This document shows positions 17,601 to 53,057 of a stretch of DNA of 64,000 bases, one piece after another. The DNA comes from Candidatus Brocadiia bacterium (lineage in GTDB: Bacteria > Planctomycetota > PUPC01 > DSUN01). The number at the start of each line of letters is the position of its first letter. The first letter of the stretch is position 1. Under the pieces are notes generated by a model. It saw only the letters and a program-made list of their open reading frames with translations. It did no database searches and was not told where the DNA came from. The stretch is taken from contig JBKHIY010000013.1 of NCBI GenBank assembly GCA_046538415.1, positions 747 to 64,746 of the forward strand, given 5' to 3'. The translations under genes were made by a program, and so were the position numbers.

Positions 17601-19264
17601 CGCACCGCGGCTTCGTCCGCCTGGTCGTAGCGAAACAGCCAGGCCAGTCGCCCTGTGGCGGTCTCCGCCGCGGCCACGATGCCCCCGCCCGCGCAGGCGA
17701 CCACCAGCCCATCGCCGGACGCGGGCATTCCCTCGAACCACTGCTGGTGGAGGCCGATGCGGAAGAAGCGGCTGGCCGGACGGCTGCACACGAAGCGCCG
17801 CCACAGCAACCCGCCGTCGCGGGCACGCAGGGCGCACAGATGGTACTCGTGGCCCGTCTCCCCGGCGCGCAGGCCGACCATCAGGCGCTCCCCGCGGGGG
17901 AGTGGCGGCGACACGAACCAGCCGCTGGCCAGCGGCTTGGGCAGATGCTCCTCCGCACCATGCTGCCAGCGCAGGGCGCCTCGCGCCGCGCCCACCGCCA
18001 GCATCTCGCCCACCATCTCCTGGCCGCGCACCCGGTGGGAGGTGCGCAGCATGGGGAAGGAGCAGTAGACCCGCTGGCCCCGGGCCGAGCACCACCAGCG
18101 GCCCACGGAGGACGACGTGGCGGTGGAAAAGGGCTCGACCAGGCGCCCGCTCGTGGGCGGCCAGGGCAGCTCCCACAGCAGCTTCCCGGAGTCCAGGTCG
18201 CGAGCCACCACGCCCCCCCTGGAGGGGTAGATCACCCGCCCCTGTCCCACCGCGGGCAGCACCCACACGGGTGGGCGGTAGGGCCTCGCCGCACGGCGCG
18301 CGGCCTGGCGCCCGGAGCGGAAGGCCGCGGCCTGGGCCACGGCCTTGGCGTGGATCAGATCGGACCACAGCAGGGGGCCTGGGCGGACCGGGGTCGCCGC
18401 GTCGGGCCGCGCCGGGCAACCGCCCGGGTAGGCCCACTCGCTGGCTTCCGTGGCCAGACGGGGCAGGCGGTCCAAGACCTTGGCATACGCGGCGAGCGGG
18501 ATACGCCGGCCGGCCACCGCCAGCGTGGCCCCCGGGCCGGCCTCGTTCGCCGCTCGGCGGAGCAGCGCCCGGGCGGCCGCGGGACGGCCCAGGCGCTGGA
18601 GGCAGGTGGCCAGCTTGGCCGCCGTGGCCACCAGGTCGGTATCCGTATCCGAGCACAGCCGGAGCAGGCGCCGCCAGGCGCGGAGGGCCTGGCCCGCCTT
18701 CCCCCGGGCGAGCCACGCCGTGGCCAGGCGGTCGAGCGCGTCGTCGCCCCAGGAGCTGAGCAGAAAGCGCTGCGCCACGAGCCTGAGCGCGGCGAGGTCG
18801 CCGCTGGCCACCGCGGCGTGGTAGAGCTCCGCCGCCCGCCCGTCCACCGCCGCCCGGTAGACCCGGCGCCCCTCGGGGGGCAGGGCGGCCAGCCGCTCTT
18901 CGACGAAGCTGCGGATAGGCACGTAGCGGCGAGGCTCGGGATGGCACAGCTCGTGGGGAGCCTCGTCCACCAGGCGCTGGTAGAGCTCGATGGCCTGGCT
19001 CCATCGCTCGTCCTGCTCCAGCCGACGGGCCCGCTCCAGGGCCGCGTTGGGCCGGGAATGCGGCGAGTAGTCGGCCGTCACCGCCCCTTCGGGCTCGGCC
19101 AGGCTGGCGCCCGAGGAGGGCCGGGGGGCCGTCGCCGCCAGGCTCCGGCGAAGAGCGGCTGCCAGGCGCCCTCGGGCCGTGGGCTCCGGCTCCGCGCCCC
19201 AGCTCGCCGTCGCTGCCAACAACAAGACCAGCGCGTTGACCGCTGGACGCATGCAGAAACTCAC
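14696..19264 (-). CDS. Giant secreted multidomain protein with TPR-like regions, two PQQ-like beta-propellers and a PDZ domain
   Basis: 1522 aa. The N-terminal signal peptide is [22 protein letters not shown]. Repeated motifs such as ALDxxTGxxLW and AxDAxTGxxxW resemble BamB/PQQ blades. A PDZ-like segment reads [33 protein letters not shown] central TPR region resembles YbgF. Its stop lies 35 bp from the moxR start. Confidence 0.7.
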
Positions 19265-19485
19265 TGAAAACTAGAACATACGACGGATACCGAACCCATC
19301 TTAGTATGCGCCCCGAGGGAAGTCAAGAACGCCCACGGCGGCGGCGAACGACTGGCGGCGGCCGCAACCGCACGCTGCGACGCCCGCGTCTTCCTTCCGG
19401 CGAGCGGCGGGACGCGGCCCGGGGCGGCGCCCTGGCCCACAGCCGCGGGCCGGTGGCTCCCGGAGCGCGTAACCTGCAAGGGCGC

Positions 19486-19558: not shown

Positions 19559-20299
19559 ATGGACCAGGAGCGCGTCGAGGCCTGCGAGCGGGCCATCGGC
19601 TACCGATTCAGCGAGTCCTTCTGGCTCCAGAAGGCCCTCATCCACTCCTCGAATCGCAGCGACGAGGGACTGAGCAACGAGCGCATGGAGTTCCTGGGCG
19701 ACGCCATCCTGGGAATGGTCACCTCGGAATACCTCTTCCACACCTATCCCGAACACACGGAGGGCGAGCTGACGGCCATCAAGAGCATCGTGGTCAGCCA
19801 GCGCACCCTGGCCCGCCACGGCCGCGAGCTCCAGCTCGACGAATTCCTGTCCGTGGGTCGGGGGATGAGCGTGGCCCGGCGGCTGCCCAATTCGGTGGTG
19901 GCCAACGTCTTCGAGGCCCTGGTGGCGGCCATTTACCTCGACGCCGGCCTGGCCGCGGCCCGCCAGTTCGTCCTTCGCAACCTCGAAGCCGAAATCGAAG
20001 AGGCCGAGCGCACCAAGCACGCGGTCAACTACAAGTCGCAACTCCAGCAGCTCGCCCAGCGAGAGCTCGCCTGCACCCCCACCTACCGGGTGGTCGAGGA
20101 AGCAGGGCCCGACCACGCCAAGTCGTTCCGCGTGGTCACCGTGATCAACGACGTGGACTACGGCACGGGCTGGGGGCGGAACAAGAAGGAAGCCGAGCAA
20201 CGCTCGGCCAAGGAGAGCCTGGCGGTGCTCAAGGCCGAGGTCGAACTGGCGGGCGACGAGACCGCGGGCAGCGTGGAGACGGAAGCCGCCGAGAGCTGA
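19559..20299 (+). CDS. rnc: Ribonuclease III
   Basis: The RNase III signature is ERMEFLGDAILG. A C-terminal dsRBD is present. The Shine-Dalgarno GAGGAAG precedes an internal ATG. The ORF track begins 20 codons earlier. Confidence 0.9.
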   Translation: MDQERVEACERAIGYRFSESFWLQKALIHSSNRSDEGLSNERMEFLGDAILGMVTSEYLFHTYPEHTEGELTAIKSIVVSQRTLARHGRELQLDEFLSVGRGMSVARRLPNSVVANVFEALVAAIYLDAGLAAARQFVLRNLEAEIEEAERTKHAVNYKSQLQQLAQRELACTPTYRVVEEAGPDHAKSFRVVTVINDVDYGTGWGRNKKEAEQRSAKESLAVLKAEVELAGDETAGSVETEAAES

Positions 20300-20339
20300 G
20301 GCGTCGGCACCCCCCGGCGCCCTGTCCCTGGGGTCAGCG

Positions 20340-21458
20340 ATGGCACGGGACCTCAATGCCACGGTCGAGGACTACCGGCGGGGCCTCGCCGCGCAGAATC
20401 GCGAGATCGAGCGCCTCCAGGCCATGGTGCGCGAGCTGGAGGAGCAGGCCCACGGCATCGGCTCGCGGCGCATCGAGAAGTCGCTGCGCCGGGCCCGGCA
20501 CGACCTGCGGCGCGCCCAGGCCGAGCGCGCCGACCTCCAGCGCGAGTACGCACGCTTCCGCCTCCGCGAGTTCATCGGCGACGACCCGGCCCACATCGAC
20601 ACCCAGCTTTTCGACGAGGAGCTGCTCCGCGTCACGTCCGCTCGCCTCGCCCGTCGCCGCTCAGGAGTGCTCTACGAGGGGCGGATCTCGGCCGACTCCT
20701 TCCGCACCGCCCTGCTCGCCGACCTGCCGCTCGACCAGCTGATCGAGAACGAGCGCTCGGAGCGGAAGGCCGGGGTGATCCTCGATCTCCTCGACGAGCA
20801 CACCTCCACCAAGGCCATTCTCCGCCACTGGGCGGCACTCGTCCAGTCCGACGACTACGTCTGCGGCGTCCTCCACCGCGCCGAGGACGCCACGGCTCGC
20901 TTCGAGGAGCATCTGGCCAACTTCACGCGGGGCCTGGAGAACCTGCGGATCGACTACGAGCTGCGCCAGCGGAAGGTCGACGACCTGCTCTTCTCCTTCG
21001 ACGACGGCCGCCCCGCGCTGCTGGCCGCCAACTACTGGGACAACATCGAGCGGCTGTGCGCCAGCCAGGTCCAGCAGCTCTTCGGCCAGTTCCTTGGCCT
21101 GGACCGGGCCCGCGAGGAGCTGCGGGTCCTCCGCGAGGAACTGAACGAGGAGCTGAGGCAGTTCATGAGGGCCTTCGTGCCCCGCTACCTGGCCTACGCC
21201 GCCAGCCAAGGCCGCCGCGGCCCCCGCCGAATGCGCCTGGGATGGCTCGCCACCCGCCGCCTGTGCCGCTACGTGCTCGACGAGGTGGACCGCACGGACC
21301 TCCTCCTGCCCCAGGGCGGCGGCATGGAGATCCCCCTGCCCCGTGTGCCCCGGAACATCGCGGCCTTCCGCAAGCTCAAGTCGTATCGCCGCTTCAAGGA
21401 ATCGGGCGAGGCCCAGGCCGACGCGGAGAGCCCCACGACGGCCCAGGGGACACGCTGA
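20340..21458 (+). CDS. Hypothetical coiled-coil protein
   Basis: 372 aa. An N-terminal heptad-rich segment (EIERLQAMVRELEEQ...) is followed by an Arg/Leu-rich C-terminal part. No family was recognised. It lies 40 bp downstream of rnc on the same strand. Confidence 0.5.
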   Translation: MARDLNATVEDYRRGLAAQNREIERLQAMVRELEEQAHGIGSRRIEKSLRRARHDLRRAQAERADLQREYARFRLREFIGDDPAHIDTQLFDEELLRVTSARLARRRSGVLYEGRISADSFRTALLADLPLDQLIENERSERKAGVILDLLDEHTSTKAILRHWAALVQSDDYVCGVLHRAEDATARFEEHLANFTRGLENLRIDYELRQRKVDDLLFSFDDGRPALLAANYWDNIERLCASQVQQLFGQFLGLDRAREELRVLREELNEELRQFMRAFVPRYLAYAASQGRRGPRRMRLGWLATRRLCRYVLDEVDRTDLLLPQGGGMEIPLPRVPRNIAAFRKLKSYRRFKESGEAQADAESPTTAQGTR

Positions 21459-21519: not shown

Positions 21520-22638
21520 ATGAGCCAGGCGCCATCGCCACCGCCGGGAAGGGACGAGACGACGGAGGCTCCCGCTCCGAGAAGCCTCCGAGCGCGGCTG
21601 CTCCTCGTCCTGGCCGGCCTGCTCGGGGCGCTGGTGGTGGCCGAGGCGGCGCTCCAGGTGGGCGGCGTCGAGGTGCGCGCCGGGCGGCTCACCCGTGACC
21701 CCCTGCTCGGCTGGCGCAACCGCCCCGGCTGGGAAGGCCCCGTCTTCTCGGTCAACTCCCTGGGATTCCTGGGCGAGGAGTTCTCGCCGACCAAGCCGCC
21801 GGGCACCGTCCGCGTCTTCTGCCTCGGCGATTCGTGCACCGCGGGAGACCTCCTGGCGTCGTTCGATCGGACCTACCCGCGACAGCTGGAGCAGGAGCTG
21901 GAGCGGCGGCTCCCCGGCGCGCGCTGGCAGGCGATCAACGCCGGGGTGGGCGGCTACAGCTCGTTCCAGGGCCGGCTGTGGCTGGAGCGCGAGATCCTGG
22001 GCTACGAGCCCGACGCGCTGGTGCTCTACTTCGGCTGGAACGACCACTGGCCCGCCCGCTCGGGCGGCCCGGACAAGGAAGTCTCGGGCTCCCTCCCCGA
22101 GCGCCTGCGGGCCGGGCTCTCCTGGTGCAAGCTGCTCCAGCTGGGCATCAAGGCTTATCACATGGCCCGGGAGCGCGAGCCCCTCCCCGCAGCAGGGCCG
22201 GCGGGCGGAACGGCCTCCCAGCCGGATCGCCCGCCCAGGGTCTCACGGGAGGATTACGCCGAAAACCTGCTGGCCATGGTCCAGGCCATGGGCGAGAGGG
22301 GAGGGGAGACGGTGATCGTCACCGCGCCCAACTACCTGGCCGCCGTACCGCTCGACTCCCTGCCCCCTGGCCTCCATGGCGGACGCGACGCGGTGGCGGC
22401 CCTGGTGGAGCTGCACGACGAGTACAATGCCATCGCGCGGGACGTGGCCAGGGAGGCGGGCGCCTGCCTGGTGGACGCGGCCCGCGACTTCGCCGAGGCC
22501 GCCGACCCCGAGGCGCTGTTCTGGAATCCGCCGCAGGACTTCATTCATCTCAGCGCCGAGGGCTGTCGGCGGCTCGCTTCCGCCGTGGCCCGCTGCCCCG
22601 CCTTCGGGAAGCTGGCCAACGAGGTCGAGCAGCCATGA
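21520..22638 (+). CDS. SGNH/GDSL-family hydrolase with an N-terminal membrane anchor
   Basis: The ATG is at 21520 and the TM helix is LLLVLAGLLGALVVA. Block I is FCLGDSCTAG (GDSx with Ser nucleophile). GWND marks a later block. A C-terminal DFIH resembles the DxxH catalytic pair. Confidence 0.7.
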   Translation: MSQAPSPPPGRDETTEAPAPRSLRARLLLVLAGLLGALVVAEAALQVGGVEVRAGRLTRDPLLGWRNRPGWEGPVFSVNSLGFLGEEFSPTKPPGTVRVFCLGDSCTAGDLLASFDRTYPRQLEQELERRLPGARWQAINAGVGGYSSFQGRLWLEREILGYEPDALVLYFGWNDHWPARSGGPDKEVSGSLPERLRAGLSWCKLLQLGIKAYHMAREREPLPAAGPAGGTASQPDRPPRVSREDYAENLLAMVQAMGERGGETVIVTAPNYLAAVPLDSLPPGLHGGRDAVAALVELHDEYNAIARDVAREAGACLVDAARDFAEAADPEALFWNPPQDFIHLSAEGCRRLASAVARCPAFGKLANEVEQP

Positions 22639-24302
22639 GCATCCCCAGCGCTGGTAGCCCGTCCTGGCGTCCCTCGCGCGGCTTCCGCCACGCGCTGGCC
22701 TGCCTGGCGCTGCTGGTTCTTGTGGGGGCGGCGTTCCTCAACGCTCTGGCCAACGGCTTCGTCACCTACGACGACTGGTTCCTGGTCGAGGAGAACCCGC
22801 GCATCCGCTCGCTCGCCTGGCCTCGCGTGGTGGCGCTGTTCGCCCGGCCCAACGACCGTGGGGTGTGGCTGCCGCTGCGCGAGCTCAGCTACGCCGTGGA
22901 CTACCGCTTGTGGGGCCTTGACCCCTTCGGCTACCACCTGACCAACGTAGGGCTCCACGCGGCCAACGTGCTCCTGGCCTACGCCCTGGTGTGCTGGGTG
23001 GTGGGGCGGCCGGCGATGGCCTTCCTCGGAGCGGCGGTGTTCGCCGTGCATCCGGTGCAGGCGGAGTCGGTGGCCTGGGTGGCGGGCCGCCGGGACGTGC
23101 TGAGCGGCTTCTTCTTCCTCGCCGCGTTCCTGGCGTTCGTGGGCTTCGAGCGGCGGGGGGGCAGGCGGCGGTGGCTTCTCTACGCCGCTTCGTTGGCCGG
23201 GCTGGCGTGCGCCCTGGCCTCGAAGGCTACGGCGATGATGCTGCCCGCGGTGTTGGTGCTCGCCGTGCTGGTGTTCGGGGGGCGGGCCGGCGCGGTGTGG
23301 CGTCGGGTGGCGCTGTGCGTGCCCCACGGCCTGTTGGCGGCAGGGGGTGCGGCGGTGCACTTCCTGGCGGCCCGTCAGGCCGGGGTCGTCAAGGAGGTGG
23401 TGGCCGGGGGCCGGCTGCCCAGCGTGGCGTGGAGCCTGGCGGCCTACTGGCGGCTGCTGTTCTTCCCCGTGGGCCTGTCCACGCCGCAGGCCCGACAGCC
23501 GGTGCCGTGGTCGGCCACGTGGGTCGTCCTCGGCTCCGTGGCGGTCGTGGTGGGGGTGGTGGCGGCGGCGTGGTGGGCGGCCCCTCGGCGGCGGCTGGCG
23601 CTGTTCTGCCTCGGCTGGTGGTTCCTGCTCCTGCTGCCGGTGTCGAACCTGGTGCCGCTGAGCATGCTCATCGCCGAGCGCTACCTGTACCTGCCGCTGC
23701 TCGGCGCCGGGGCCTACGGCGCCGAGCTGGTGGCGAGCCTGGCCAGGCGGCGTGGGGCGCTCGTCGTCGCCTGCTCGGCCCTGGTGGTGGGGCTTCTGGG
23801 AACGGCCACGGTGGAGCGTAACCGCACGTGGCGAAACAGCATGGTCTTCTGGAAGGAGGCGGTCGAGCGCTGGCCCGATTCGCCCGTCACTCGCCTCGGC
23901 CTGGCCAGCGCTTACGTCGACGCGAACCGCCCGGAGAGGGCCTGGGGGCAGTATCTCGAGGTCGCCTCCCACGCCGGCACCGCGCTGTCGCGGAACCCGG
24001 AGCACGAGCGCTTCATCCGCGCCGGCCTGGAGCGGTGCTCCGAGCGACTGGGCCGGCTCCTGGAGGCCAGGGGCGAGCGGGAGCGGGCGCTGGAGGTCTA
24101 CGCCACCGCGCTCAGCCTGCGGCCCGACGACATCGAGCTGCGGGCACAGCTCGCCAGGGCCTACGAGCGCTACGGCATGGTCGAGGAGGCCAGGGCGCAG
24201 GTGGAGGCCATCGCCGAGGCGGAGGGCGATGTCCCGGGGCTCGAGCAGTGGCTGGAGCGCCTGGAGAGGAAAGCCTCGTGGCGGTCGAAAGGGGAGGAAT
24301 AG
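22635..24302 (+). CDS. TMTC-like GT-C glycosyltransferase (PMT_2/DUF1736 membrane domain) with C-terminal TPR repeats
   Basis: 555 aa. The N-terminal motif is FVTYDDWFLVEENPRIRSL…LRELSYAVDYRLWGLDPFGYHLTNVGLH, followed by about 10 TM helices. The C-terminal segment is rich in TPR-like helices. The ATG overlaps the stop of the SGNH gene as ATGA. Confidence 0.7.
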   Translation: MSIPSAGSPSWRPSRGFRHALACLALLVLVGAAFLNALANGFVTYDDWFLVEENPRIRSLAWPRVVALFARPNDRGVWLPLRELSYAVDYRLWGLDPFGYHLTNVGLHAANVLLAYALVCWVVGRPAMAFLGAAVFAVHPVQAESVAWVAGRRDVLSGFFFLAAFLAFVGFERRGGRRRWLLYAASLAGLACALASKATAMMLPAVLVLAVLVFGGRAGAVWRRVALCVPHGLLAAGGAAVHFLAARQAGVVKEVVAGGRLPSVAWSLAAYWRLLFFPVGLSTPQARQPVPWSATWVVLGSVAVVVGVVAAAWWAAPRRRLALFCLGWWFLLLLPVSNLVPLSMLIAERYLYLPLLGAGAYGAELVASLARRRGALVVACSALVVGLLGTATVERNRTWRNSMVFWKEAVERWPDSPVTRLGLASAYVDANRPERAWGQYLEVASHAGTALSRNPEHERFIRAGLERCSERLGRLLEARGERERALEVYATALSLRPDDIELRAQLARAYERYGMVEEARAQVEAIAEAEGDVPGLEQWLERLERKASWRSKGEE

Positions 24303-24327: not shown

Positions 24328-25314
24328 CTAGTTTCTCAACTGCCAGAGCAGCCCACCCTCTTTGCCCACGCCGCGGCGGAGGTCGATCTCGCGGTTGGTC
24401 TTGAACTCGACGTGGCTGTCGAAGAAGAGCACGCTCATCCCGCCGTTGTGCTCCTCGCCGTGGTTGATGGGGTCCTGGGTGTCGTCGCTGCCCATGGGCA
24501 TGTTGGGTGGGAACATGTCGGGGATGGCCCGGGCCACCCGCGTACCGCCCGCTTCGGTCATGCTGTAGTAGTGCATGCCCGCGTAGCTGACGGTGTGGGG
24601 GCCGAAGCGCCAGCGGTCGGCGCGCTCGGCTCCCAGGTCGCGGCCGTTGTGGTTCGTGTCGGACGTGCTGGGGCAGAGGAAAACGCCGGGGTCGGGCACC
24701 ACGCTGGTCCAGTAGAGGCTGGCCAGCCACTCGGCGCCGTTGTAGTTGTCGGCCCGCGCGCCCCGTCCCAGGGGGCAGGGGTAGAAGCGGTTGTCGCCCA
24801 GCTCGGTGAGGTAGGTGGCCATCCCCTTGGCCATCTGGTTGAGGTTGTTGCGGCAGCGGATGCGTCGGGCCTCTTCCCGCGCCCGGGCCAGGGCCGGGAG
24901 CATCATGAGGCTGAGGACGATGGAGCCGAAGAGGGCTACGGCCACCACACCGCAGGGCACGCCCACGGCGATGGCGCTGACCAGGGCATTGCGGTCCGCC
25001 CGGGGGTAGGCCAGGCGCATGCCGGCGAGCGCTTGCGGGGGCGTGGCCTCCCCGCGGACCACCGCGGCGAAGGGCTCCACCTGCCCCATGGGCTGCCAGT
25101 CGGCCATGCCCTCCCGCCAGCAGGGGGTGGTCTCGTCGACCTGCCCTCGCCACAGGCGGTCGAGCAGCCGGTCCGTGGAAAAAGGTCCCGAGGGCCGGTC
25201 GCCGGCTCCTCGGACGTACCACTGGTCGGGCGGGGTGCTCACCTTCCTGCCTCCTGCGCTCGCGGTCCGTGCGGAACGGGTCAGTGGCAGTCGTAGCCCG
25301 TGAAGACGGGGCAA
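24328..25314 (-). CDS. DUF1559 (H-X9-DG) domain protein with an N-terminal GYF/DUF4339-like domain and a single TM
   Basis: 328 aa with a TTG start. The N-terminal segment DQWYVRGAGDRPSGPFSTDRLLDRLWRGQVDETTPCWREGMADWQPMG resembles DUF4339. A TM helix follows, and then about 190 aa that are near-identical to the downstream pseudopilin paralog, ending in the [20 protein letters not shown] motif. Confidence 0.7.
   Translation of the reverse strand: MPRLHGLRLPLTRSARTASAGGRKVSTPPDQWYVRGAGDRPSGPFSTDRLLDRLWRGQVDETTPCWREGMADWQPMGQVEPFAAVVRGEATPPQALAGMRLAYPRADRNALVSAIAVGVPCGVVAVALFGSIVLSLMMLPALARAREEARRIRCRNNLNQMAKGMATYLTELGDNRFYPCPLGRGARADNYNGAEWLASLYWTSVVPDPGVFLCPSTSDTNHNGRDLGAERADRWRFGPHTVSYAGMHYYSMTEAGGTRVARAIPDMFPPNMPMGSDDTQDPINHGEEHNGGMSVLFFDSHVEFKTNREIDLRRGVGKEGGLLWQLRN
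24331..24909. repeat. Tandem-duplication copy A, the 3' part of the first DUF1559 gene
   Basis: It encodes about 190 aa that are more than 85% identical to copy B. Antisense-frame ORFs 24362..24568 and 25336..25698 also translate near-identically, which shows nucleotide-level similarity. Confidence 0.6.
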
Positions 25315-25442: not shown

Positions 25443-26111
25443 TCAGTTGCTGAGCTGCCAGAGCAGCGACTTGTCGGCCCCACCGCTGTCGGCGCCCACG
25501 CCTCGCAGCAGGTCAATGTCGGTATTGGTCCTGAATTCGACGTGGCTGTCGAAGAACAGGACGCTCATACCGCCGTTGTTCTCCTCGCCGTGGTTGATGG
25601 GGTCTTGGGTGTCGTCGCTACCCATCGGCATGTTGGGCGGGAAGTTGTCGGGGATGGCCCGGGCCACCCGCGTACCGCCCGCTTCGGTCATGCTGTAGTA
25701 GTGCATGCCCGCATAGCTGACGGTACCTTCGTCGAAGGTGGTAGCGGCGGTTTCCGAGCCGATCCGGAGCCCGTCCTCGTTCGTGTCGGGCGAACTCGGG
25801 CAGATGAAAACGCCGGGGTCGGGCACCACCCTGGTCCAATAGAGACTGGCCAGCCATTCGGCTCCGTTGTAGCTGTCGCCGCTTGCCGACCGCGTCCGAC
25901 CGAGCGGACACGGATAGAAGCGGTTGTCGCCCAGCTCGGTCAGGTATGTGGCCATACCCTTGGCGAGCTGGTTGAGGTTGTTACGACAACGGATCCGTCT
26001 GGCCTCCTCACGAGCCCTGGCCAAGGCAGGCAGAAGCATGCCCGCCAGAATTGCGATAATGGCAATGACGACCAAGAGCTCGATGAGGGTAAAGCCGCGC
26101 CTTTTCTTCAT
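25443..26111 (-). CDS. Prepilin-type N-terminal cleavage/methylation domain protein with DUF1559 (type II secretion pseudopilin-like, H-X9-DG)
   Basis: 222 aa. The class III signal is MKKRRG|[20 protein letters not shown], with G at -1, F at +1 and E at +5. The DUF1559 body carries the [20 protein letters not shown] motif. Confidence 0.85.
25446..26033. repeat. Tandem-duplication copy B, the second DUF1559 gene body
   Basis: See copy A. Boundaries are approximate. Confidence 0.6.
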
Positions 26112-26171: not shown

Positions 26172-26199
26172 ATTATACGCCGGCGACGCGCGGTGTCAA
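26172..26199 (-). promoter_or_regulatory. Sigma70-consensus promoter for the prepilin/DUF1559 gene
   Basis: The minus strand reads gatttgc-TTGACA-ccgcgcgtcgccggcg(16)-TATAAT. Both hexamers are perfect. An A-rich tract lies upstream. The Shine-Dalgarno AAAGGGGGTGAGA lies before the ATG at 26111. Confidence 0.55.
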
Positions 26200-26237
26200 G
26201 CAAATCCCACAAAAACTCGCGGCCCCACACAGCCCCC

Positions 26238-27530
26238 TCACAGCTCCTCCAGGGAACGGAAGACCATGCCAGTGCGAGGCTTGGGCCAGAAATAGGTCGA
26301 CTTCGGCGGCATCCGCTGTCCCGCGTTCACCACGGCCATCAGCTCCTCGGCCCGTACCCCGGGCAGGAGGGCCGCCATCCGGGCCGCCCCCGCGTCCACC
26401 TGGGCGGTGGCCCGCGCCGCGCACGCCTCGTAGCTGACCTCCGGCTCGCGTTCCGTAAATGCAGCGCTCACAAAGCCATGCGTGAAAACGGCAGCGGGAA
26501 GGCGGCGGACGGGCGAGCCGCTCGGGTAGGGGGACTCGGCGAGCGCCGCCTCGTCGCGCAGCTCGAGGAGGGTGTAGCCCGGCCCCTGGCCGCCGTGGAG
26601 CGCGAAGGCGGCCCGCCCCGCCCGGTCGGCCAGGGCCGCCAGAGCATCGTCCACGCTCGCCTCGGCCAGCCGCTGCACGTCGAACCATGCTGCCGCGCGG
26701 TCCACCACCTCGTCCGCCGTCGGTTCGCCCGCCCAGCGGAGGACGCGGTGGGTGGGGCGGATGACCAGCCCGGGGTCCGCGGAGGACATGCAGGCGGCGA
26801 GGACGTAGTCGCAGGGCAGCTGGCCCTCCGGCGCGGGATGGCCGGCGCGCTGGAGGCGTCGGTAGGCCAGAGCCGTTTCGTAGCGGTGGTGTCCGTCCGC
26901 GATATAGAGGGGCAGGGGGGCGAGCGCATCGGCCAGCGCGGCCCTGCGGTCGGCCGACCACAGGGGGCGCAGCTCGTGGTCGATGCCCCGCTCGTCGGCG
27001 AAGACGGCGAGGGGCTCGGCCTGGGGGCCCGCCAGGAGGTCTCGCACCCGCGCCTCCGGGTCGGGGAAGAAGGCCAGGATGGGGCTGAGGTTCGCGGGGC
27101 AGGCTCTCATCAGGCGCAAGCGGTCGGCCTTCGGCCCGGGCATGGTATTCTCGTGGGGCAGCACGCTGCCCTCTTCGTACGGCTCGAGGCGCAGGGCGCC
27201 CATCACCAGCGTGCGCTGGCGGCGCTCGCCCTGGTGGTTGAACCGCTGGACGTAGAGGTAGAAGGCGGGCTCGGGATCGGGGACCAGGATGCCCTGGCGG
27301 AGCCAGGCGCGGTAGAGCTCCTTGGCCCGCTCGTACCAGTCGTCGGCCGGCGGGGCTTCTGCGCGGCGGCGCTCCCCGAGGATCAGGCGCACCGCGTTGT
27401 AGGGGCTTCGCCGGCACAGGGCGACGTGGTCCTCCGGCCCAATGACGTCGTAGGGCGGCGAGACCAGATCGGCGAGGGGACCGGCGTCGCTAGCGTAGCG
27501 AATGCCGCGAAAGGGCTTCAGCTCTGGCAT
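26238..27530 (-). CDS. DUF1015 family protein
   Basis: 430 aa starting MPELKPFRGIRYA…. A conserved ADGHHRYETA motif is present. The longer ORF in the track is Arg/Pro-rich before this ATG and is an artefact. The start lies inside the 3' end of the upstream STT3 gene, with a 13-nt overlap. Confidence 0.6.
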   Translation of the reverse strand: MPELKPFRGIRYASDAGPLADLVSPPYDVIGPEDHVALCRRSPYNAVRLILGERRRAEAPPADDWYERAKELYRAWLRQGILVPDPEPAFYLYVQRFNHQGERRQRTLVMGALRLEPYEEGSVLPHENTMPGPKADRLRLMRACPANLSPILAFFPDPEARVRDLLAGPQAEPLAVFADERGIDHELRPLWSADRRAALADALAPLPLYIADGHHRYETALAYRRLQRAGHPAPEGQLPCDYVLAACMSSADPGLVIRPTHRVLRWAGEPTADEVVDRAAAWFDVQRLAEASVDDALAALADRAGRAAFALHGGQGPGYTLLELRDEAALAESPYPSGSPVRRLPAAVFTHGFVSAAFTEREPEVSYEACAARATAQVDAGAARMAALLPGVRAEELMAVVNAGQRMPPKSTYFWPKPRTGMVFRSLEEL

Positions 27531-29560
27531 CCGTGGGCCTGCCTCGTCTGTGGGAGTCTCGGGAGAACGTGGGCCTCGCCCGTCGCCTCGGCCGGGCCAG
27601 GGGGCACCAGCTCGAAGAGCCGCGTGGAGAAGTCGCGGCCCAGACGGCGGCTGTGGTGGACCGTCTCGTGGACCAGGCGGAACTGGCGCAGCGGCCGGCG
27701 CGTGCCCGGGGCCAGCGGCTCGGGGCGGGCCTGGAGCGCGCCGGCCATCACGGCCGCCTCGGCCCCCGTGCGGGGGTCGAGCCCCAGGTCGGCGAGAATG
27801 AGGGGCAGGAAGAAGTCGGTGGACAGCACGTAGCGGACCCCCAACCGTCGGCACAGCGCCGCGGCTTGCGCCTCCGAGCGGGCCCCGAAGAAGGCCCTCG
27901 CCCGCTCCAGCCCCAGACGGTGCTGCGGGGTGTTGCCGAAGGGGCACGCGACGTTGGCTCGCTGCCCCAGGTAGGTGAGCCAGTGCCCGTAGTGCCAGTA
28001 GGCCATCACCGCGTACGGGGGCCGCGTATCGAAGTCCGAGATGTCCCCCCCGGGCGGGGCCTCGGCACGCAGCCACTCCAGGGCCGGCAGCACCCGCTGA
28101 AGCTCGTAGCGGGGAAGGCCCAGGCGCGGGCGCCATCGCTCGACCGGCGCCCCGGCGGCGACCGCAGTCACCGCCACCAGCGACACGCGGCAGAGCACCC
28201 GCGTGCGCGGCGCCCCCAGGGCCGCCGCGCGCCAGAGCCCCGCGGCCAGCGCCGCCAGGCACAGCGCCAGGGGCGCGGCCAGGTGCCCTGCGAAGCGGCG
28301 CTGGGCCACGGCCAGGAGGCAGGTGCCCGCCGCCCAGACGGCCACCAGCCAGTCGCCCTCGGCCGCCCGCCGCCCCGCGGCCCGCCACACCACCAGGAGC
28401 AGACCGGCGGGGAAGGCCACCGCGGCCCACGTGAGCCGATTCACCGCGCCGTCCAGCCCGGTGGCGAACAGGCCCCTCGCCTCGCCCGCCGTGGCCACCA
28501 CCACGTCCGTCCGTCGGCCCATGAACCCGATGCCGCCCCCGAGCGCCGACCAGCCCCCGGGAACGGCCCACACGGCCGCCGCAGCCAGCGCCGCGTGCGA
28601 GCCCACCACCCAGGCCAGCTTCGCGCCCCGGCTCAGCCGACCGCTCCGCAATACCGCCCAGAGCAGCACCGGGCTCGCCCCACAGGCCAGCGCCGCCGCC
28701 CCATGGAAGCCGGAAAGGAACGCGAACGAGGCCCCCCAGGGCCGCGCCGCCGGCGAAAGACCCAGGAGGAACACGACCACCAGGGCCGCGCCGCCCAGCG
28801 CCGCGCTCGCCGCACCCCAGCCACGCGGTACCGGCCGCTGCAACGCGAGCGCGGTTACCGCACGCACCCAAAGGCTCCCCGCGGCCAGGAGCACGAAGAC
28901 CACCGAGCCGGGCCACAGCCACAACGAGCCGCCCAGCAGGAGACCCGCCAGCCCGCTCCAGGCGAGCCGTCTTCGCCGGCCCGGCTGCCGCCGCGCCGCG
29001 AGCCAGCAGCCCAGGCCAGCCGTCACCGCTGCGACCACCGCCGCGTCGTGGTCTACCTTCCCCACCGCCGAGGCCGCGATGCACGTCGGAAGCAGGGCCA
29101 CCAGGGCCGCCGCCACACAGCCCACCGACCGACCGCGCCACAGGGAGCCGAACCAGTACGTGGCCACCACGACCAGGCAGCCCAGCACGGGCATGGCCCA
29201 CGCACACACGCGCTCGACGTCCTGCGACCAGGGGCGGGCCCCGGCCACCCGCCCCGCGGCGGCGAGGACGAGGTCGAAGCCTGCCGGCCAGTAGATGTGG
29301 GCTCCCTCGGGGTAGTTCACGTAGGCGTCGAAGGCGGGTACCGTGGGGAAATCGGCGACCGCCTTCTGGACGCGTCGCAGGTGGTAGTAGGGGTCGTTGC
29401 CCGGCAGGAGCACGCGCCCGTCGACGAATACGAAGTGAGCGTCGCGAGCGCGGGCGAGGAAGGCTCCGGCCAGCACCAGCACGAGGGCCGCCCCACAGGC
29501 CCACCTGCGGCGGCCTGCCCACGGCTTGCGGCGTTCGTGCTCATCCTCGGGCAGCGCCAT
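27518..29560 (-). CDS. STT3/AglB/PglB-family oligosaccharyltransferase (GT-C)
   Basis: 680 aa with about 13 TM helices. The N-terminal loop reads GNDPYYHLRRV. The periplasmic C-terminal domain carries AYWHYGHWLTYLGQRANVACPFGNTPQH, which matches the WWDYG motif region. It is followed by SEAQAAALCRRLGVRYVLSTDFF, which resembles the eukaryotic/archaeal STT3 '…MRELDVDYVLVIFGG' segment. Confidence 0.55.
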   Translation of the reverse strand: MALPEDEHERRKPWAGRRRWACGAALVLVLAGAFLARARDAHFVFVDGRVLLPGNDPYYHLRRVQKAVADFPTVPAFDAYVNYPEGAHIYWPAGFDLVLAAAGRVAGARPWSQDVERVCAWAMPVLGCLVVVATYWFGSLWRGRSVGCVAAALVALLPTCIAASAVGKVDHDAAVVAAVTAGLGCWLAARRQPGRRRRLAWSGLAGLLLGGSLWLWPGSVVFVLLAAGSLWVRAVTALALQRPVPRGWGAASAALGGAALVVVFLLGLSPAARPWGASFAFLSGFHGAAALACGASPVLLWAVLRSGRLSRGAKLAWVVGSHAALAAAAVWAVPGGWSALGGGIGFMGRRTDVVVATAGEARGLFATGLDGAVNRLTWAAVAFPAGLLLVVWRAAGRRAAEGDWLVAVWAAGTCLLAVAQRRFAGHLAAPLALCLAALAAGLWRAAALGAPRTRVLCRVSLVAVTAVAAGAPVERWRPRLGLPRYELQRVLPALEWLRAEAPPGGDISDFDTRPPYAVMAYWHYGHWLTYLGQRANVACPFGNTPQHRLGLERARAFFGARSEAQAAALCRRLGVRYVLSTDFFLPLILADLGLDPRTGAEAAVMAGALQARPEPLAPGTRRPLRQFRLVHETVHHSRRLGRDFSTRLFELVPPGPAEATGEAHVLPRLPQTRQAHGCQS

Positions 29561-29577
29561 GTGGGACACGCGGACGC

Positions 29578-30612
29578 CTAGCGGGAGCCTGCCTGGTCGA
29601 CCTGGAGCCGCTCGAAGCCGCTGGAGCGCGCCGTAGCCAGCTCCCCGTCGCGGCGGTACATGATGAGCATCTCGACCTCCTCGCGCTTTTCGGCGAAGGC
29701 CAGCGCCTGCTCGACCCCCATCACGCTCGCCGCCGTGGCGTAGGCGTCGGCGGTCATCGGGTCGGCCGCCACCACGGTGACGCTGGTCATGTCCTCCACG
29801 GGACGGCCGGTGCGAGGGTCCAGGATGTGGGAGTAGCGCCGCCCGTCGACCATTCCGAACTGCTCGTAGTCGCCCGAGGTGGCCACGGCGCGGTCGCGCA
29901 GGAGGATGGGCCGGGGCAGGATCTTGCCTCGCCGGCTGGGGTCGCGGACGCCGATGAGCCAGCCCTCGCGGCCCGGCGGGGCGCCCACGCCGTAGATGTC
30001 GCCGCCGGCGTCCACCAGAGCGGCGCGAATGCCATGGGCCTGGAGGGCTTCGATCGCCTGGGCCACGGCGTAGCCCTTGCCGATGCCGCTGAGCTCGAGC
30101 CTCTGGCCCGCCTTGGCCAGCCGCACGCGGGGCGCGTCGGGAGCGCACTCCACCGACCGGTAGTCCACGAGAGCCCTGGCCGCCGCGATCTCTTCGTCGC
30201 CGGGGCGCTTGCCCGTGCGCCAGCTGCGCCGCCACAGCGCCACCACGGGGCCCACCGTGGGGTCGAAGGCGCCGCGGGTCTCCTCGGCGATCTCCACGGC
30301 CCTCCGCAGGGGCACCCACAGATGCTCGCTCACGGCCATGGGCGGCGACCCGGCGGCGCGGTTGAGCTTCGAGACGTCGCTGTCCTCCCGCCAGGTGCTG
30401 GTGGCCGCCTCCACCTCCTCGACGCGCTGGAACGCGGCCTCGATGGCCCGCAGCCCTGCCTCCCGCCCGGGCGCGTAGACGGTCACCGCCATGTAGGTGC
30501 CCATGGGCCTGCGCGTGCGGGACAGGCGCACCAGGTCGGCCTCCCCGGCGCCGCTCCGCGCGGCGGCGAGGACCAGCAGGCACGCGACGGGCTGGATGCG
30601 CGCTGCTCGCAT
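29578..30612 (-). CDS. apbE: FAD:protein FMN transferase
   Basis: 344 aa. A signal or lipoprotein-like N-terminus is followed by MGTYMAVTVYA, GIGKGYAVAQAIEAL and a TSGDYEQF motif typical of ApbE. Confidence 0.85.
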   Translation of the reverse strand: MRAARIQPVACLLVLAAARSGAGEADLVRLSRTRRPMGTYMAVTVYAPGREAGLRAIEAAFQRVEEVEAATSTWREDSDVSKLNRAAGSPPMAVSEHLWVPLRRAVEIAEETRGAFDPTVGPVVALWRRSWRTGKRPGDEEIAAARALVDYRSVECAPDAPRVRLAKAGQRLELSGIGKGYAVAQAIEALQAHGIRAALVDAGGDIYGVGAPPGREGWLIGVRDPSRRGKILPRPILLRDRAVATSGDYEQFGMVDGRRYSHILDPRTGRPVEDMTSVTVVAADPMTADAYATAASVMGVEQALAFAEKREEVEMLIMYRRDGELATARSSGFERLQVDQAGSR

Positions 30613-30726: not shown

Positions 30727-31329
30727 TCATTCCAGGTTGGCGTGCTTGGCGGACATACTTTCTGGCGAGGCCCCGCGGTGCTCCTGGAGCAGGAGCACCA
30801 TGGCGTCGAGAAAGAGGAGGAGGGACTGCTCGAACAGCGACGCCCCGAACTGCTCCGATGGCGAGGCGCTGGAGGGCGTGGTGGGCGCCGGAAGCACCAC
30901 CTCGATATCCGCCTCCGCCGCCAGGCGGCTGCCCGGCGCGGCGGTGATGGCCGCCACCGTGGCGCCCACCTCGCGGGAGCGGCGGGCGCGGTGGCAGGTG
31001 ATGGGCGTCTCGCCGGAGCCGGAGCAGGCGATGCACAGGTCGCCGGCCTCGATGGCGGGAGTGATGGTCTCCCCGCACACGAAGCTGTGCATCCCCAGGT
31101 GGATGAGGCGCATGGCGAAGGCCCGTCCCACCAGGCCCGAGCGGCCCTCGCCCGCCACGTACACGCGGCGAGCCGCTACGAGGCCGTCGAGCAGGCGGTC
31201 GGCAGCGCCCAGGTCGGCCCGGGCGAAGAGCTCCTCGAGCTCCTCCTCGATCTGTCGCACGGCCCGGTGGATGTCCATCGCTCGCTCCGCGACGTTCTGC
31301 TGCGGCATTGTGCCCAAGTATACCCTCAC
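30727..31329 (-). CDS. SIS-domain sugar-phosphate isomerase, 6-phospho-3-hexuloisomerase-like
   Basis: 200 aa. RRVYVAGEGRSGLVGRAFAMRL and ACSGSGET are SIS motifs. Confidence 0.7.
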   Translation of the reverse strand: MRVYLGTMPQQNVAERAMDIHRAVRQIEEELEELFARADLGAADRLLDGLVAARRVYVAGEGRSGLVGRAFAMRLIHLGMHSFVCGETITPAIEAGDLCIACSGSGETPITCHRARRSREVGATVAAITAAPGSRLAAEADIEVVLPAPTTPSSASPSEQFGASLFEQSLLLFLDAMVLLLQEHRGASPESMSAKHANLE

Positions 31330-31372: not shown

Positions 31373-32440
31373 TTACGCCCCGTCGCAGCGTTCGGACGCC
31401 CGGTGGGGCGTCACGGCCACCGCGCCCTCGCCGCCGACCTCGCCCTCCAGGACGACCGTGGCGTCGACGAACCGCTCGATCACCCGCGCGTTCGTGACCA
31501 GGTGCGTGGTGATGCACGGCACGGGGAACCGCGAGGGAGCCGACGCCAGGGCGAGGGCCAGGAGCAGCTGGTCGGCGCTGTGGGCGTCCACGGCCCCCGC
31601 GGTGCCCAGGAAGCCCAGCAGCGCGTCGCACGCCTCGTCGGCCACCTGCTCGGCCCGCTTTCCCCGGGCTCCCAGCGCGTCGAAGGCGGCCCGCCCGCCC
31701 CCTCGGTAGCAGGACAGGAGGTGGAGCACCGTGCCCTTGCCAGGGGAGGGCAGCTCGGCGATCTCGATGCCCGCGTGCAGCCCCGCCGCCTCCAGGCGTG
31801 CCAGGGCCTGGCGCCGCTGGCGCTCGGCGATGGAGCGCGGCAGGTTGCTCACCGCCGACACCCCCTCCAGCCGCTCCAGCGGGCCGCGAGACCCCAGCTC
31901 CAGCGGGTCCACGGAGCGGGCGGGCAGGATCTTCGCCCGAACCTGGCCCCCGCCCTCCGGATAGTAGCCGGCCTGGCTGAGGGTCAGCTCCACCTCGATC
32001 CCCATCCTGCGGAGCAGCGACGCCCACTGGTGGCGCAAGAAGTGGAACGAGGGGCTGAACGGCACGTGCGTGCCGCCCCCGAGCGTGACCACGGAGCGCG
32101 ACGGCTCCAGGGCCAGGGGCAGGGACAGGGTCTGGAGGAGAAGCGAGGTGGAGCCTGCCGTGCGGATATCGAACCGATACGTGCCCGGACGAACCGCCGA
32201 GGGCGCGAAGCGGACCGTCCTGGAGCCCAGCGCGGCGCCCTCCACCTGGGCGCCGCTCACCTTGGCCGCCGCCTTCACGCACGCCAGGTGCTGGGGCCGC
32301 AGCCCCGGCTTGCGCCGGCCGGCCCGCAGGTTCCGGATCGCGAACGGCCGGCCAGTGACCATGGAGAGGGCTAGGGCCGTGCGCAGAATCTGCCCGCCGC
32401 CCTCGCCTTCGGAGCCGTCGATGTGGAGTATCTCGGCCAC
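31373..32440 (-). CDS. rtcA: RNA 3'-terminal phosphate cyclase
   Basis: The motif ILHIDGSEGEGGGQILRTALALSMVTGRPF matches the RtcA N-terminus. The annotated ATG at 32539 would collide with the divergent gmhB start. A GTG at 32440 (VAEILHIDG…) gives the canonical length. The start is uncertain. Confidence 0.75.
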   Translation of the reverse strand: MAEILHIDGSEGEGGGQILRTALALSMVTGRPFAIRNLRAGRRKPGLRPQHLACVKAAAKVSGAQVEGAALGSRTVRFAPSAVRPGTYRFDIRTAGSTSLLLQTLSLPLALEPSRSVVTLGGGTHVPFSPSFHFLRHQWASLLRRMGIEVELTLSQAGYYPEGGGQVRAKILPARSVDPLELGSRGPLERLEGVSAVSNLPRSIAERQRRQALARLEAAGLHAGIEIAELPSPGKGTVLHLLSCYRGGGRAAFDALGARGKRAEQVADEACDALLGFLGTAGAVDAHSADQLLLALALASAPSRFPVPCITTHLVTNARVIERFVDATVVLEGEVGGEGAVAVTPHRASERCDGA

Positions 32441-32536
32441 GTCCCATCCCCGTGTTCGCCGCGCCCTGCGCCGGCGACGAGCTTCGCCGGCGGCTTGCCG
32501 TCGGCGCGTGCCGCGGCTACAATACAGCCCCGTGAC

Positions 32537-33104
32537 CATGGACGCAACCCGCTCCTACCGCCGCGTGGTGTTCCTGGACCGCGACGGGGTGGTCAACAGG
32601 CCGCCGCCGAAGGGGAGCTGGGTGTTCCGGTGGGAGGACTTCCACTTCGCCGACGGGGCCCTGGACGCCCTGCGGACGCTCCGCCGCCACGGCTTCACCG
32701 TGGTGGTAGTGACCAACCAGTCGTGCGTGGGCCGGGGCTTCGCGCAGCTGGCGGCCATCGAGGCCATTCACGCCAGGATGCTCGCCGCCGTGGGCGAGGC
32801 CGGCGGGGCCATCGCTGGGGTCTACGTCTGCCCCCACGTGGACGAGGACCGCTGCCCCTGCCGCAAGCCCAGGCCGGGGCTCATCGACCGGGCCGCCGCC
32901 GAGCTGGGCATCGATCCCGCGGGGGCCTTCCTGGTGGGCGACTCTCCCCGCGACGTCCAGGCGGGAGCGGCCAGGGGCTGCACCACCATCCTCGTAGACG
33001 CGGAAGAGGCTCCTGCGTGCGAGGCCGACTTCGTGGCCGCCGACCTGCGGGAGGCCACCCACCTGATCCTCCGCCTGGTGGGGGACTTGCCCCGGGAGCC
33101 CTGA
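32537..33104 (+). CDS. gmhB: HAD-IIIA phosphatase, D,D-heptose 1,7-bisphosphate phosphatase (GmhB)-like
   Basis: 189 aa. Motif I is VVFLDRDGVVN. CPHVDEDRCPCRKPRPGL carries the Zn-binding Cys residues of GmhB. The text continues with LVGDSPRDVQAGAARGC. Confidence 0.7.
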
Positions 33105-42457: not shown

Positions 42458-42641
42458 CTGGCTCCCGCATTCCGCTTGGTGGCGCCCGGAGAGTAGCAGA
42501 AAGCCCCGGGCGACGCAAGACCGCGAAGGAGCGGGCCGCGGGCTTGACTTCGTTCCGGGCCGCGCTTACGCTACACTTGGGAAAGTGGGGCGTAGCCCCC
42601 GCCGCAAGGCAAGGCCGAACTCGGTGAAGACGAGGTAAGTC

Positions 42642-43319
42642 GTGCTGATAGAAGTACATAGGAAGTCGGACAAGAGGGCACAGCAGGAGGCCCGGGCGCG
42701 AAGAAGGGCGAAGAGATGCCGGGCCGCCGCGCTGGCCGCGGCCTTCGCCGCCACCATCGTCGCCTGCTTCCTGCTGGGGCGGCTGGCCAGGCCCGCCGAG
42801 GACTGGTCGCGCCAGCATACCGATACCGACGACGACCCCAAGGTCTTCCGTAACTCCTTCCTCGGCCTGTGCATGCTGATTCCCGACGAAGACGACTGGC
42901 GGATGGTCAGCGATCCTTCCCACTTTCGCTTTCAGGGCCTGAAGGGCGTCAACAAGGTGCTGGAAATCGACCGGATGGTCGGCCCCGGGGAAAGCCGCCG
43001 CCAGTGGGCGCGGATGGACCTCTTCGTCCATCCCCTCTACGGCCAGGTGGAGCCCGACCACGTGCTGCGCGTGCTCGAGTTCCGGCCCCAGCGTCCCGGC
43101 TTCCGCATCGTTGACGAGCGGACGGTGACCATCGGGGGAGAGGAGGGGACGGCGCGCACCGGTGCCTGGAGCCTCGGGGGGCGGCGGTTCCGGGCCATCA
43201 ACTACGCGGTGAGCCACGCCGAACGCCTCTTGTGCTTCGTCGCGGTGTGCGAGGCGGAGGCCTTCGCCCGGCACCGCGCGCGCTTCGACCGGATCGTTGC
43301 CTCCGTCCGCTTCGAGTAG
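42642..43319 (+). CDS. Cassette partner X1, a small membrane-anchored hypothetical protein
   Basis: 225 aa with a GTG start. A basic N-terminus is followed by a TM helix AAALAAAFAATIVACFLLGRL. The C-terminal motif LLCFVAVCEAEAFARHRARFDRIVASVRFE is shared with X2 and X3. Confidence 0.5.
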   Translation: MLIEVHRKSDKRAQQEARARRRAKRCRAAALAAAFAATIVACFLLGRLARPAEDWSRQHTDTDDDPKVFRNSFLGLCMLIPDEDDWRMVSDPSHFRFQGLKGVNKVLEIDRMVGPGESRRQWARMDLFVHPLYGQVEPDHVLRVLEFRPQRPGFRIVDERTVTIGGEEGTARTGAWSLGGRRFRAINYAVSHAERLLCFVAVCEAEAFARHRARFDRIVASVRFE

Positions 43320-43633
43320 CCCGCCCCGCGACCTCCATCGCCGCCGCCCATCAACCCATACCCCAGGCCCGTCGCAGGCCCCGCCACGCGGTGCTCTGGC
43401 CCGCCGCTGCGGGGGAGGCAAGCCCCGAGGCGACCACGTCGCGGCGCCCTGCCTGGGCGCCAGCCCCGGCGCATAAGTGTCGCTATACCAGATGGGTATG
43501 CGTAGCTGAGGCAGTCCCGCACGGTGGCTCAGCCGCCCGCCGGCACGCCGCTTGCACGATGCACCAAGCGCCTGCGGCGAGACCGCCGCCGGAAGCCGTG
43601 AAGACGCCGAGCCAAGGGAAAAGGAGAACGACG

Positions 43634-53005: not shown

Positions 53006-53057
53006 CCCCCGCGCTCGCGAAAACGGGCCGCGCTCTGGGAAAGGGGAAGACCCCAAC

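Follow-up and report, generated by a model that had tools for sequence, protein, structure and literature searches.

A predicted AglB-type STT3-family glycosyltransferase with a conserved variant of the WWDYG acceptor motif in Planctomycetota

Archaeal AglB and bacterial PglB are the described systems closest to the gene considered here, which lies on the minus strand at 27518–29560 of a 64,000-nucleotide stretch of DNA (the window; G+C ∼72%) from a Candidatus Brocadiia bacterium of the Planctomycetota and encodes an STT3-family protein of 680 residues. In solved oligosaccharyltransferases, the WWD residues of the WWDYG motif bind the Ser or Thr at position +2 of the N-X-S/T sequon, and it is the Asp that contacts this residue. 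Campylobacterota and Desulfobacterota are the sources of the characterized bacterial N-oligosaccharyltransferases known to us, and the WWD triad is present in every one. In the window protein, the equivalent segment reads YWHYG. We read the gene, with moderate confidence, as encoding an intact AglB-type transferase of lipid-linked glycans, whose acceptor specificity would be unlike N-X-S/T and which appears dispensable and not functionally tied to the ApbE and DUF1015 genes on either side of it.

The best match of the protein, in both sequence and fold, is archaeal AglB (Archaeoglobus fulgidus AglB-L, here AfAglB, 3WAJ, 5GMY, and 7E9S; AglB-S1 and AglB-S2, 3VU0 and 3VGP). The two have in common GNDP(W/Y)Y, the DxH/DxD motif, a TIXE-type Glu, QxRF, the G-H-W tail of the WWDYG segment, and the "(V/I)RYV" strand. 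The short AglBs have a small periplasmic domain consisting of the core only, which the window protein resembles, whereas AglB-L, with 868 residues, carries peripheral domains that the window protein lacks. The window protein also differs from the archaeal enzymes in its bacterial host, in having YWHYG in place of WWDYG, in the third residue of DxD, which is Asp and not His, and in the lack of an archaeosortase or agl gene context. The profile of the archaeosortase-A-associated STT3 proteins (TIGR04154) was the only NCBIfam match, at 262.7 bits and under its cutoff of 450. PglB (Campylobacter lari and Campylobacter jejuni; Desulfovibrio; 3RCE, 5OGL, and 6GXC), a single-subunit bacterial oligosaccharyltransferase, shares the GT-C fold and the catalytic logic but is a much weaker match, with a Foldseek template-modeling score on the query (TMq) of ∼0.52 and 12% identity. 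The PglBs sit in pgl glycan-assembly clusters, unlike the window gene. They also keep WWD(Y/W)G, which the window protein does not, and WWDWG is retained even in the divergent, functionally tested Desulfovibrio PglBs (PMC12229607). Bacterial "STT3 domain-containing proteins," for example from metagenome-assembled genomes (MAGs) of Myxococcota and Anaeromyxobacteraceae, have the D, DHH, E, and R set and a W-x-x-G-H motif and lie nearest in a neighbor-joining tree, but they are only 25%–33% identical, and the clade of the window protein has a fixed WHYGHW and DHD instead of DHH.

As an earlier note made from the letters of the window had proposed, the protein belongs to the STT3/AglB/PglB family (PF02516; CAZy GT66) by profile, by matches to PDB sequences, and by predicted fold, none of which places it with ArnT or PMT. 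Translated from 27518–29560, it scored 63.1 bits with the Pfam STT3 profile (PF02516; cutoff 24.5) over residues 28–225 and 38.4 bits with AglB_core-like (PF22627; cutoff 27) over residues 494–581. A phmmer search of PDB sequences returned A. fulgidus AglB-L (3WAJ and 5GMY), the C-terminal domains of AglB-S1/S2 (3VGP, E 3.4e-11; also 3VU0), and eukaryotic STT3. An AlphaFold2 model, built on an alignment of 14 sequences, reached a mean predicted local distance difference test score (pLDDT) of 80 and a predicted template-modeling score (pTM) of 0.85 and has a multi-helix membrane domain followed by a small periplasmic core domain. The top PDB match of this model in Foldseek was AfAglB (7E9S, E 3e-21, TMq 0.71–0.72), followed by human and yeast STT3 (TMq 0.59–0.72) and by DPY19 and PglB, with ArnT, PMT, and Emb far lower. 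The assignment to an ArnT-like or other GT-C family, which the note had named as the alternative, did not occur: the PMT profile gave 19.8 bits, below its 22.7 cutoff, and the fold match to ArnT had a TM-score of 0.29–0.38 (ArnT/Pmt E 1e-4 or weaker, TM-score ≤0.4). The gene product is 100% identical to the NCBI entry [quoted passage not shown] and the STT3-domain annotation is already present there as an automatic one.

The residues on the catalytic and donor side were compared in a MAFFT alignment of 157 relatives of at least 500 residues, gathered by word-index and exhaustive profile searches; coordinates here and below are on the minus strand unless marked otherwise. The first external loop contains GNDPYYH (29381–29401), which aligns to GNDPWYY of AfAglB, and its D56 (29393–29395) is invariant (157/157). 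The DxD/DxH metal-binding motif, D170-H171-D172 (29045–29053), aligns to NDHH of AfAglB. D170, in a VDHD context, is present in all 157 relatives, and the third position is His in 143/157 and Asp only in the window clade and a few others. E360 (28481–28483), in TAGE, is the equivalent of the TIXE Glu of external loop 5 and is Glu in 156/157; this loop has low pLDDT in the model, as expected of a flexible segment. R422 in QRRF (28295–28297) aligns to QNRF of AfAglB and is Arg in 155/157. In the solved PglB and AglB structures, the equivalents of D56, D170, and E360 serve metal binding and activation of the acceptor amide, and R422 is taken here, from the same structures, to be the conserved Arg that binds the phosphate of the lipid-linked donor. 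Because D56, D170, E360, and R422 are all retained, the donor side of the protein looks fully competent. Across seven clade members at ∼50% identity, 145 alignment columns are invariant, which indicates purifying selection. The 680-residue reading frame would encode an intact AglB-type membrane GT-C enzyme, probably active to judge from its residues, with the active site facing the periplasm. D56, D170-x-D172, and E360 would bind a divalent metal and activate the acceptor, and R422 would hold the phosphate of a polyprenyl-(di)phosphate-linked glycan. Since the metal-binding acidic residues and the donor Arg are kept, the enzyme would most likely move a preassembled glycan from its lipid carrier onto an acceptor on the outer side of the cytoplasmic membrane.

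On the acceptor side the picture differs. The note had described AYWHYGHW (residues 520–527) as WWDYG-like. The likeness is borne out by a gap-free alignment of YWHYGHW (27980–28000) to WWDYGHW of AfAglB, but the motif is not canonical: in the equivalent segment, Y521-W-H-Y-G525, the first Trp is replaced by Tyr and the Asp by His. The motif was found as (Y/F)WHYGHW in 7/7 clade loci (the window, L001–L004, L048, and L055), with Tyr or Phe at the first position and His at the third throughout. Among the 157 relatives, canonical WWD(Y/N)G occurs in only 8 and Asp at position 3 in only 34, while the second Trp (141/157), the Gly at position 5 (155/157), and the His at position 6 (126/157) are conserved. 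Archaeal loci from a genome scan, mostly Methanothrix, served for comparison; of 38 loci, 35 cover the motif region, and every one of these 35 has at least one copy with WWDYG, one additional paralogue carrying WWNYG. Downstream of the motif lies GVRYVLSTDFF (27809–27841). The segment after VRYVLS that is equivalent to the DK/MI motif reads TDFFLPLIL (D-x-x-L-x-x-x-L) in the window and PQLPVPLLV or TDLVLPLMV elsewhere in the clade, and it aligns poorly outside the clade. The pocket that reads the +2 Ser or Thr in known enzymes is probably remodeled, since WWDYG is replaced by a (Y/F)WHYGHW that is strictly conserved in the clade.

A conventional N-oligosaccharyltransferase, acting on N-X-S/T of secreted or surface proteins with His523 in place of the Asp as hydrogen-bond partner of the +2 hydroxyl, would account for the full catalytic set, for the AglB fold, and for the retention of W522, Y524, and G525 in the motif. 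It is also established that the characterized STT3-family enzymes are all N-oligosaccharyltransferases (PMC4973528). Yet two of the three WWD residues, the first Trp and the Asp, are exchanged, and these substitutions are fixed in the clade; the DK/MI-type helix, here DFFLPLIL, varies within it; genes for assembly of a lipid-linked oligosaccharide are not adjacent; and the adjacent pilin-like proteins, the ApbE protein, and the GDSL protein have no sequon. We regard a conventional specificity as rather doubtful. The likelihoods given here to this and the other readings, including the preferred one, were judged singly; the readings overlap, and the values do not sum to one.

The relatives of the window protein form a large group. 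In a set of 1.84 billion sequences, the family profile matched 3010 cluster representatives at E ≤ 1e-3, some of them archaeal and possibly eukaryotic; at E ≤ 1e-10 the number was 1999. The close relatives for which context or source name was examined are all bacterial. A look-up of 20 representatives gave the names "bacterium" and "Myxococcota bacterium" and JGI Stt3 labels only, so that the wider taxonomic spread is a sampled one. The note had described N-linked oligosaccharyltransferase systems as restricted in bacteria, but STT3-domain genes are not rare in bacterial metagenomes. A second word-index search with a profile of 22 sequences added no new taxa, its 18 proteins being essentially those already found. 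Within this group, the window clade is monophyletic in the neighbor-joining tree, and its nearest neighbors there all have degenerate W-x-x-G-H motifs (PWSAGHW, HWDFGHD, and HWSYGHF). The clade is small: at 50% identity it comprises eight representatives, which either reach 466 bits or more or are fragments, and a gap in profile score separates its long members (≥466 bits) from the rest (≤301 bits), a clade fragment of 305 residues scoring 310. An unrelated bacterium (L049, 8085–12286; L050, 2367–6568) has two tandem, overlapping STT3-family paralogues of 639 and 761 residues, the longer of which carries HWDFGHD. Searches of the literature on STT3 or AglB in Planctomycetes, on "AglB-like" proteins in bacteria, on ApbE with oligosaccharyltransferase, and on STT3 in Myxococcus yielded nothing specific.

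Degeneration of the motif in most of the closest 150 relatives, with the donor-side and metal-binding residues invariant, is also what a shift of function within the STT3 fold would leave behind, toward a non-protein acceptor such as an envelope glycan or lipid or toward a residue other than Asn; DPY19 and ArnT, which offer a comparison for such a shift, are among the structural relatives. Use of an acceptor other than Asn is not known for any member of Pfam STT3, though, and the protein retains the periplasmic core domain of AglB, which frames the peptide site, so that a shift of this kind seems unlikely. More broadly, and tentatively, the (Y/F)WHYGHW clade and the much larger W-x-x-G-H radiation to which it belongs, bacterial wherever examined, may together form a branch that combines lipid-linked-donor chemistry with an acceptor other than N-X-S/T. 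Such an acceptor could be a new protein motif or a non-protein molecule of the envelope. What remains as new here is the conserved change from WWDYG to WHYG within a large, unstudied STT3-like radiation.

In the window, the STT3 gene stands between the gene of an ApbE-family FAD:protein FMN transferase (29578–30612; 344 residues; Pfam ApbE 286.6 bits) and that of a DUF1015 protein (26238–27530; 430 residues; Pfam DUF1015 271.2 bits). The apbE gene is upstream, with a 17-nucleotide spacer between its stop codon and the STT3 ATG, and the STT3 and DUF1015 genes overlap by 13 nucleotides (27518–27530), the DUF1015 ATG being at 27530–27528 and the STT3 TGA at 27520–27518. What the note had stated at the level of the sequence holds throughout, and the overlap was confirmed by direct reading. 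The window protein lacks a C-terminal AglB_L1 domain and ends in a low-confidence tail (27518–27620); the AglB_L1 β sandwich is kept in two clade members, of 742 residues (L001, 141–2369) and 799 residues (L055, 4263–6662). Loss of this domain brought the stop codon into overlap with DUF1015. Upstream and in the same direction lie the genes of HxlB, a 6-phospho-3-hexuloisomerase (30727–31329; TIGR03127 188.8 bits, cutoff 160), and of RtcA (31373–32539; Pfam RTC 258 bits), both part of a conserved syntenic backbone. Downstream are a prepilin-type N-methyl/DUF1559 pilin-like gene (25443–26111; Pfam N_methyl 41.2 bits and DUF1559 27.5 bits) and a second pilin-like gene, a GYF/DUF1559 fusion (24328–25314).

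A promoter scan found no promoter-like site within the apbE-STT3-DUF1015 run, although the 9.2-kb region as a whole has three such sites against 0.2 expected. One of these, between DUF1015 and the first pilin-like gene, is a sigma-70-type promoter, TTGACA-16-TATAAT, that matches the consensus at 12/12 positions (26172–26199). Just 3′ of DUF1015 there is a weak terminator-like hairpin (26207–26222) with a 6-bp stem, which is within chance expectation. The perfect promoter before the pilin gene and the lack of an internal one point to (RtcA-HxlB-)ApbE-STT3-DUF1015 as the likely transcription unit and to a separate pilin transcript, and the STT3 gene is probably co-transcribed with apbE and DUF1015. 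The observation that pgl-type glycan-assembly genes are not adjacent holds: none lies inside the three-gene run, and the immediate neighbors are RtcA, HxlB, ApbE, DUF1015, and the pilin-like genes. The glycosyltransferases nearest to the STT3 gene are a GT4 protein (41246–42565) and a probable GT-C protein with TPR repeats (22635–24302, plus strand). A compositional sign of recent transfer was sought in the STT3 gene and not found, its G+C of 0.759 and third-position G+C (GC3) of 0.91 matching the neighbors.

The order of the genes recurs in the six other clade loci. L001 has STT3-DUF1015-pilin and L002 SIS-ApbE-STT3-DUF1015; L003, L004, and L055 have RtcA-SIS-ApbE-STT3-DUF1015 followed by three or four pilin genes; and L048 has DUF354-GT4-ApbE-STT3-DUF1015-pilin, next to which, on the opposite strand and as in the window, come a TPR protein, a GDSL protein, a protein of 365 residues, and RNase III. 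In L048, DUF354 and GT4 (6632–8856) take the place of RtcA-HxlB, and this is the only locus in which candidate glycan-synthesis genes abut the cluster. The tight linkage described in the note is thus real in spacing and order, but the overlap from which translational coupling had been suggested is specific to the window. It is not conserved in L001, L002, L048, or L055, and gaps of 9, 25, 27, and 367 nucleotides occur in other loci.

A different arrangement emerged from the homologues of the DUF1015 protein. By BLASTP the best of these is in L054 (59% identity), with those of L051 and L052 at 53%–54%. All three loci keep the block Obg...GmhB / RtcA-SIS-ApbE-DUF1015-pilin / TPR protein, a protein of ∼370 residues, and RNase III, the GDSL gene being present in L054 only. 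Here ApbE and DUF1015 are separated by just 19–21 nucleotides (junctions at 6981–7001 in L051 and L052 and 3729–3751 in L054), and tblastn over the ∼15 kb of each locus detected neither an STT3 gene nor a remnant. The STT3 gene is therefore a clean presence/absence polymorphism within a syntenic block. The loci without STT3 resemble the window more closely than do the other loci with STT3, in ApbE (63%–67% against 51%–59% identity in the MAFFT matrix, 55%–60% by tblastn) as well as in RtcA (71%–72% against 65%–66%), which favors loss over gain, and the STT3 tree is roughly congruent with that of DUF1015. Vertical inheritance with one clean loss of STT3 appears the parsimonious reading of these sequences, the root not being resolved. 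The gene would be ancestral to a small, Brocadiia-related clade of Planctomycetota and cleanly lost in a sublineage that keeps apbE and DUF1015 adjacent. Beyond the clade the linkage disappears: distant STT3-like genes (L043, L044, L046, and L049) have unrelated neighbors with no ApbE or DUF1015, and the neighbors of a more distant DUF1015 gene (L053) are unrelated too.

In the note, this linkage had hinted at a dedicated, non-canonical protein-modification module of ApbE, STT3, and DUF1015, with the surface pilin-like proteins as possible substrates. The co-directional genes, the short spacer, the overlap, and the promoter-free run are in keeping with such a module, as are the order ApbE-STT3-DUF1015-pilin in six further loci at ∼50% identity and the core that L048 keeps although its upstream genes differ. 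In archaea, moreover, AglB is known to glycosylate pilins and archaellins (PMC5131992). The proposal is nevertheless largely refuted by the three loci in which ApbE and DUF1015 are adjacent without STT3. The synteny also reaches unrelated housekeeping genes (RtcA, HxlB, GmhB, Obg, and RNase III), distant homologues of STT3 and of DUF1015 are never linked to each other, and the overlap is not conserved.

Neither the DUF1015 protein nor the pilin-like proteins lend themselves to such a module. The DUF1015 protein had no match among PDB sequences, but its AlphaFold2 model (pLDDT 93.1) matched, in Foldseek, the free serine kinases SerK (5X0B, E 5e-6) and SbnI (6NR6, E 4.5e-3), the matches that a 2026 GapMind preprint also reports for the family. 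In that preprint, a DUF1015 protein complements E. coli serB, and "SerBK" serine kinases are proposed as the name of the family (bioRxiv 10.1101/2024.10.14.618325). Like the family members of C. difficile (CDIF630erm_01132), C. botulinum (CBO1128), and B. thetaiotaomicron (BT1151), the window gene encodes a full-length DUF1015. Genomic association with serA/serC would be expected of a SerBK gene; neither was found among the window reading frames scanned with Pfam, several frames being without a match or outside the scan. Judged from the model, the protein is probably a cytoplasmic enzyme of serine-kinase fold, of the proposed SerBK family, and a metabolic enzyme of this type would have no evident role in periplasmic glycosylation. 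The pilin-like proteins contain 13 (25443–26111) and 14 Asn but no N-X-S/T, and sequons are likewise absent from ApbE and the GDSL protein. The two pilin-like proteins therefore cannot be substrates of a canonical oligosaccharyltransferase, a statement that leaves a non-canonical specificity untouched, and the first pilin gene has its own consensus promoter. We consider a functional module very unlikely. The linkage of ApbE, STT3, and DUF1015 is better understood as synteny at the level of the lineage, in which STT3 is optional; because close relatives keep ApbE and DUF1015 adjacent without it, its link to them would be positional only.

The loss of the gene in a sister lineage could suggest that the window copy is itself in decay, a non-functional remnant about to be lost, and the missing AglB_L1 domain, found in L001 and L055, and the non-canonical motif could be taken in the same sense. 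The reading frame, however, is open over 680 codons, with a GC3 like that of the neighbors, the catalytic residues are all intact, and the invariant columns and the strict conservation of the variant motif are not those of a gene in decay, which makes a remnant extremely unlikely.

Several points weigh against an intact transferase of altered specificity that is only positionally linked to its neighbors. To our knowledge, every characterized oligosaccharyltransferase has the Asp of WWDYG, and a protein without it could be less active or differ in its activity. The 17-nucleotide spacer, the 13-nucleotide overlap, and the retention of the position across ∼50% protein divergence would be in keeping with a functional operon as well. 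The choice between gain and loss rests on neighbor-joining trees and on the identities of three or four proteins, with no rooted species tree, and the genomes without STT3 at this site could hold the gene elsewhere, ∼15 kb having been seen per locus.

Some features of the surrounding genes are described here in their own right. The match of the ApbE protein to its profile (PF02424) is full-length (profile positions 1–265 of 266), and the N terminus resembles a signal peptide. No flavinylation target was identified in the operon. A flavinylation-type motif in external loop 5 of the STT3 protein was considered and rejected by eye, as TAGEA does not fit the S/T-G-A-S/T pattern. The SIS gene was also considered as GmhA, of a heptose pathway together with the GmhB-like gene, and this was ruled out by its match to HxlB above the TIGR03127 cutoff. 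The pilin gene at 25443–26111 has, besides its perfect promoter, a strong GGGGGTGA ribosome-binding site, and its G+C of 62% and GC3 of 0.81, against ∼0.91 in the neighbors, suggest either very high expression or a distinct history. In its DUF1559 paralogue (24328–25314), a GYF_2 domain replaces the N-terminal prepilin methylation motif. A promoter-like site matching at 10/12 positions (25342–25314) overlaps the listed TTG start of this gene, and for this reason the true start is probably further downstream.

On the plus strand, the gene at 22635–24302 encodes a multi-pass membrane protein of 555 residues with C-terminal TPR repeats, whose membrane part has no Pfam family. In a profile-profile comparison, five orthologues together matched the STT3-family profile across the transmembrane region, including the DxD segment (hhalign probability 89%, E 2e-6), and an F-D-D loop motif is invariant. 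The gene adjoins that of the GDSL hydrolase and is kept in relatives with and without STT3; its product is probably a second GT-C glycosyltransferase, of TMTC/PMT-like type. Beside RNase III, L051 (12878–15299) and L052 (12867–15299) encode a large protein with a PF18582 HZS_alpha (hydrazine-synthase-alpha-like) domain, and the window instead a PQQ/TPR/PDZ protein of 1524 residues (14696–19270). Five long reading frames with coding-like GC3, all on the plus strand, had no Pfam or NCBIfam match (20145–21458, 43115–45094, 46045–48087, 48210–49052, and 52812–54170). The one of 437 residues among them, between the RNase III and GDSL genes, keeps its place in L048, L051, L052, and L054. Rfam and tRNA scans of the window gave no matches.

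Read in this way, the locus would document an AglB-like enzyme kept under purifying selection in a clade of Planctomycetota, with its catalytic core intact and its acceptor motif rewritten. The seeming operon with apbE and DUF1015 should not serve to infer the function of the enzyme, because it is a conserved gene order in which STT3 is an optional member. If the tentative wider reading, of a whole branch with an acceptor other than N-X-S/T, is true, periplasmic glycosylation by AglB-like enzymes would extend into Planctomycetota, Myxococcota, and other phyla. Should these enzymes be active, they could widen the known range of protein or envelope glycosylation in bacteria and may provide oligosaccharyltransferases with new acceptor preferences for glycoengineering.

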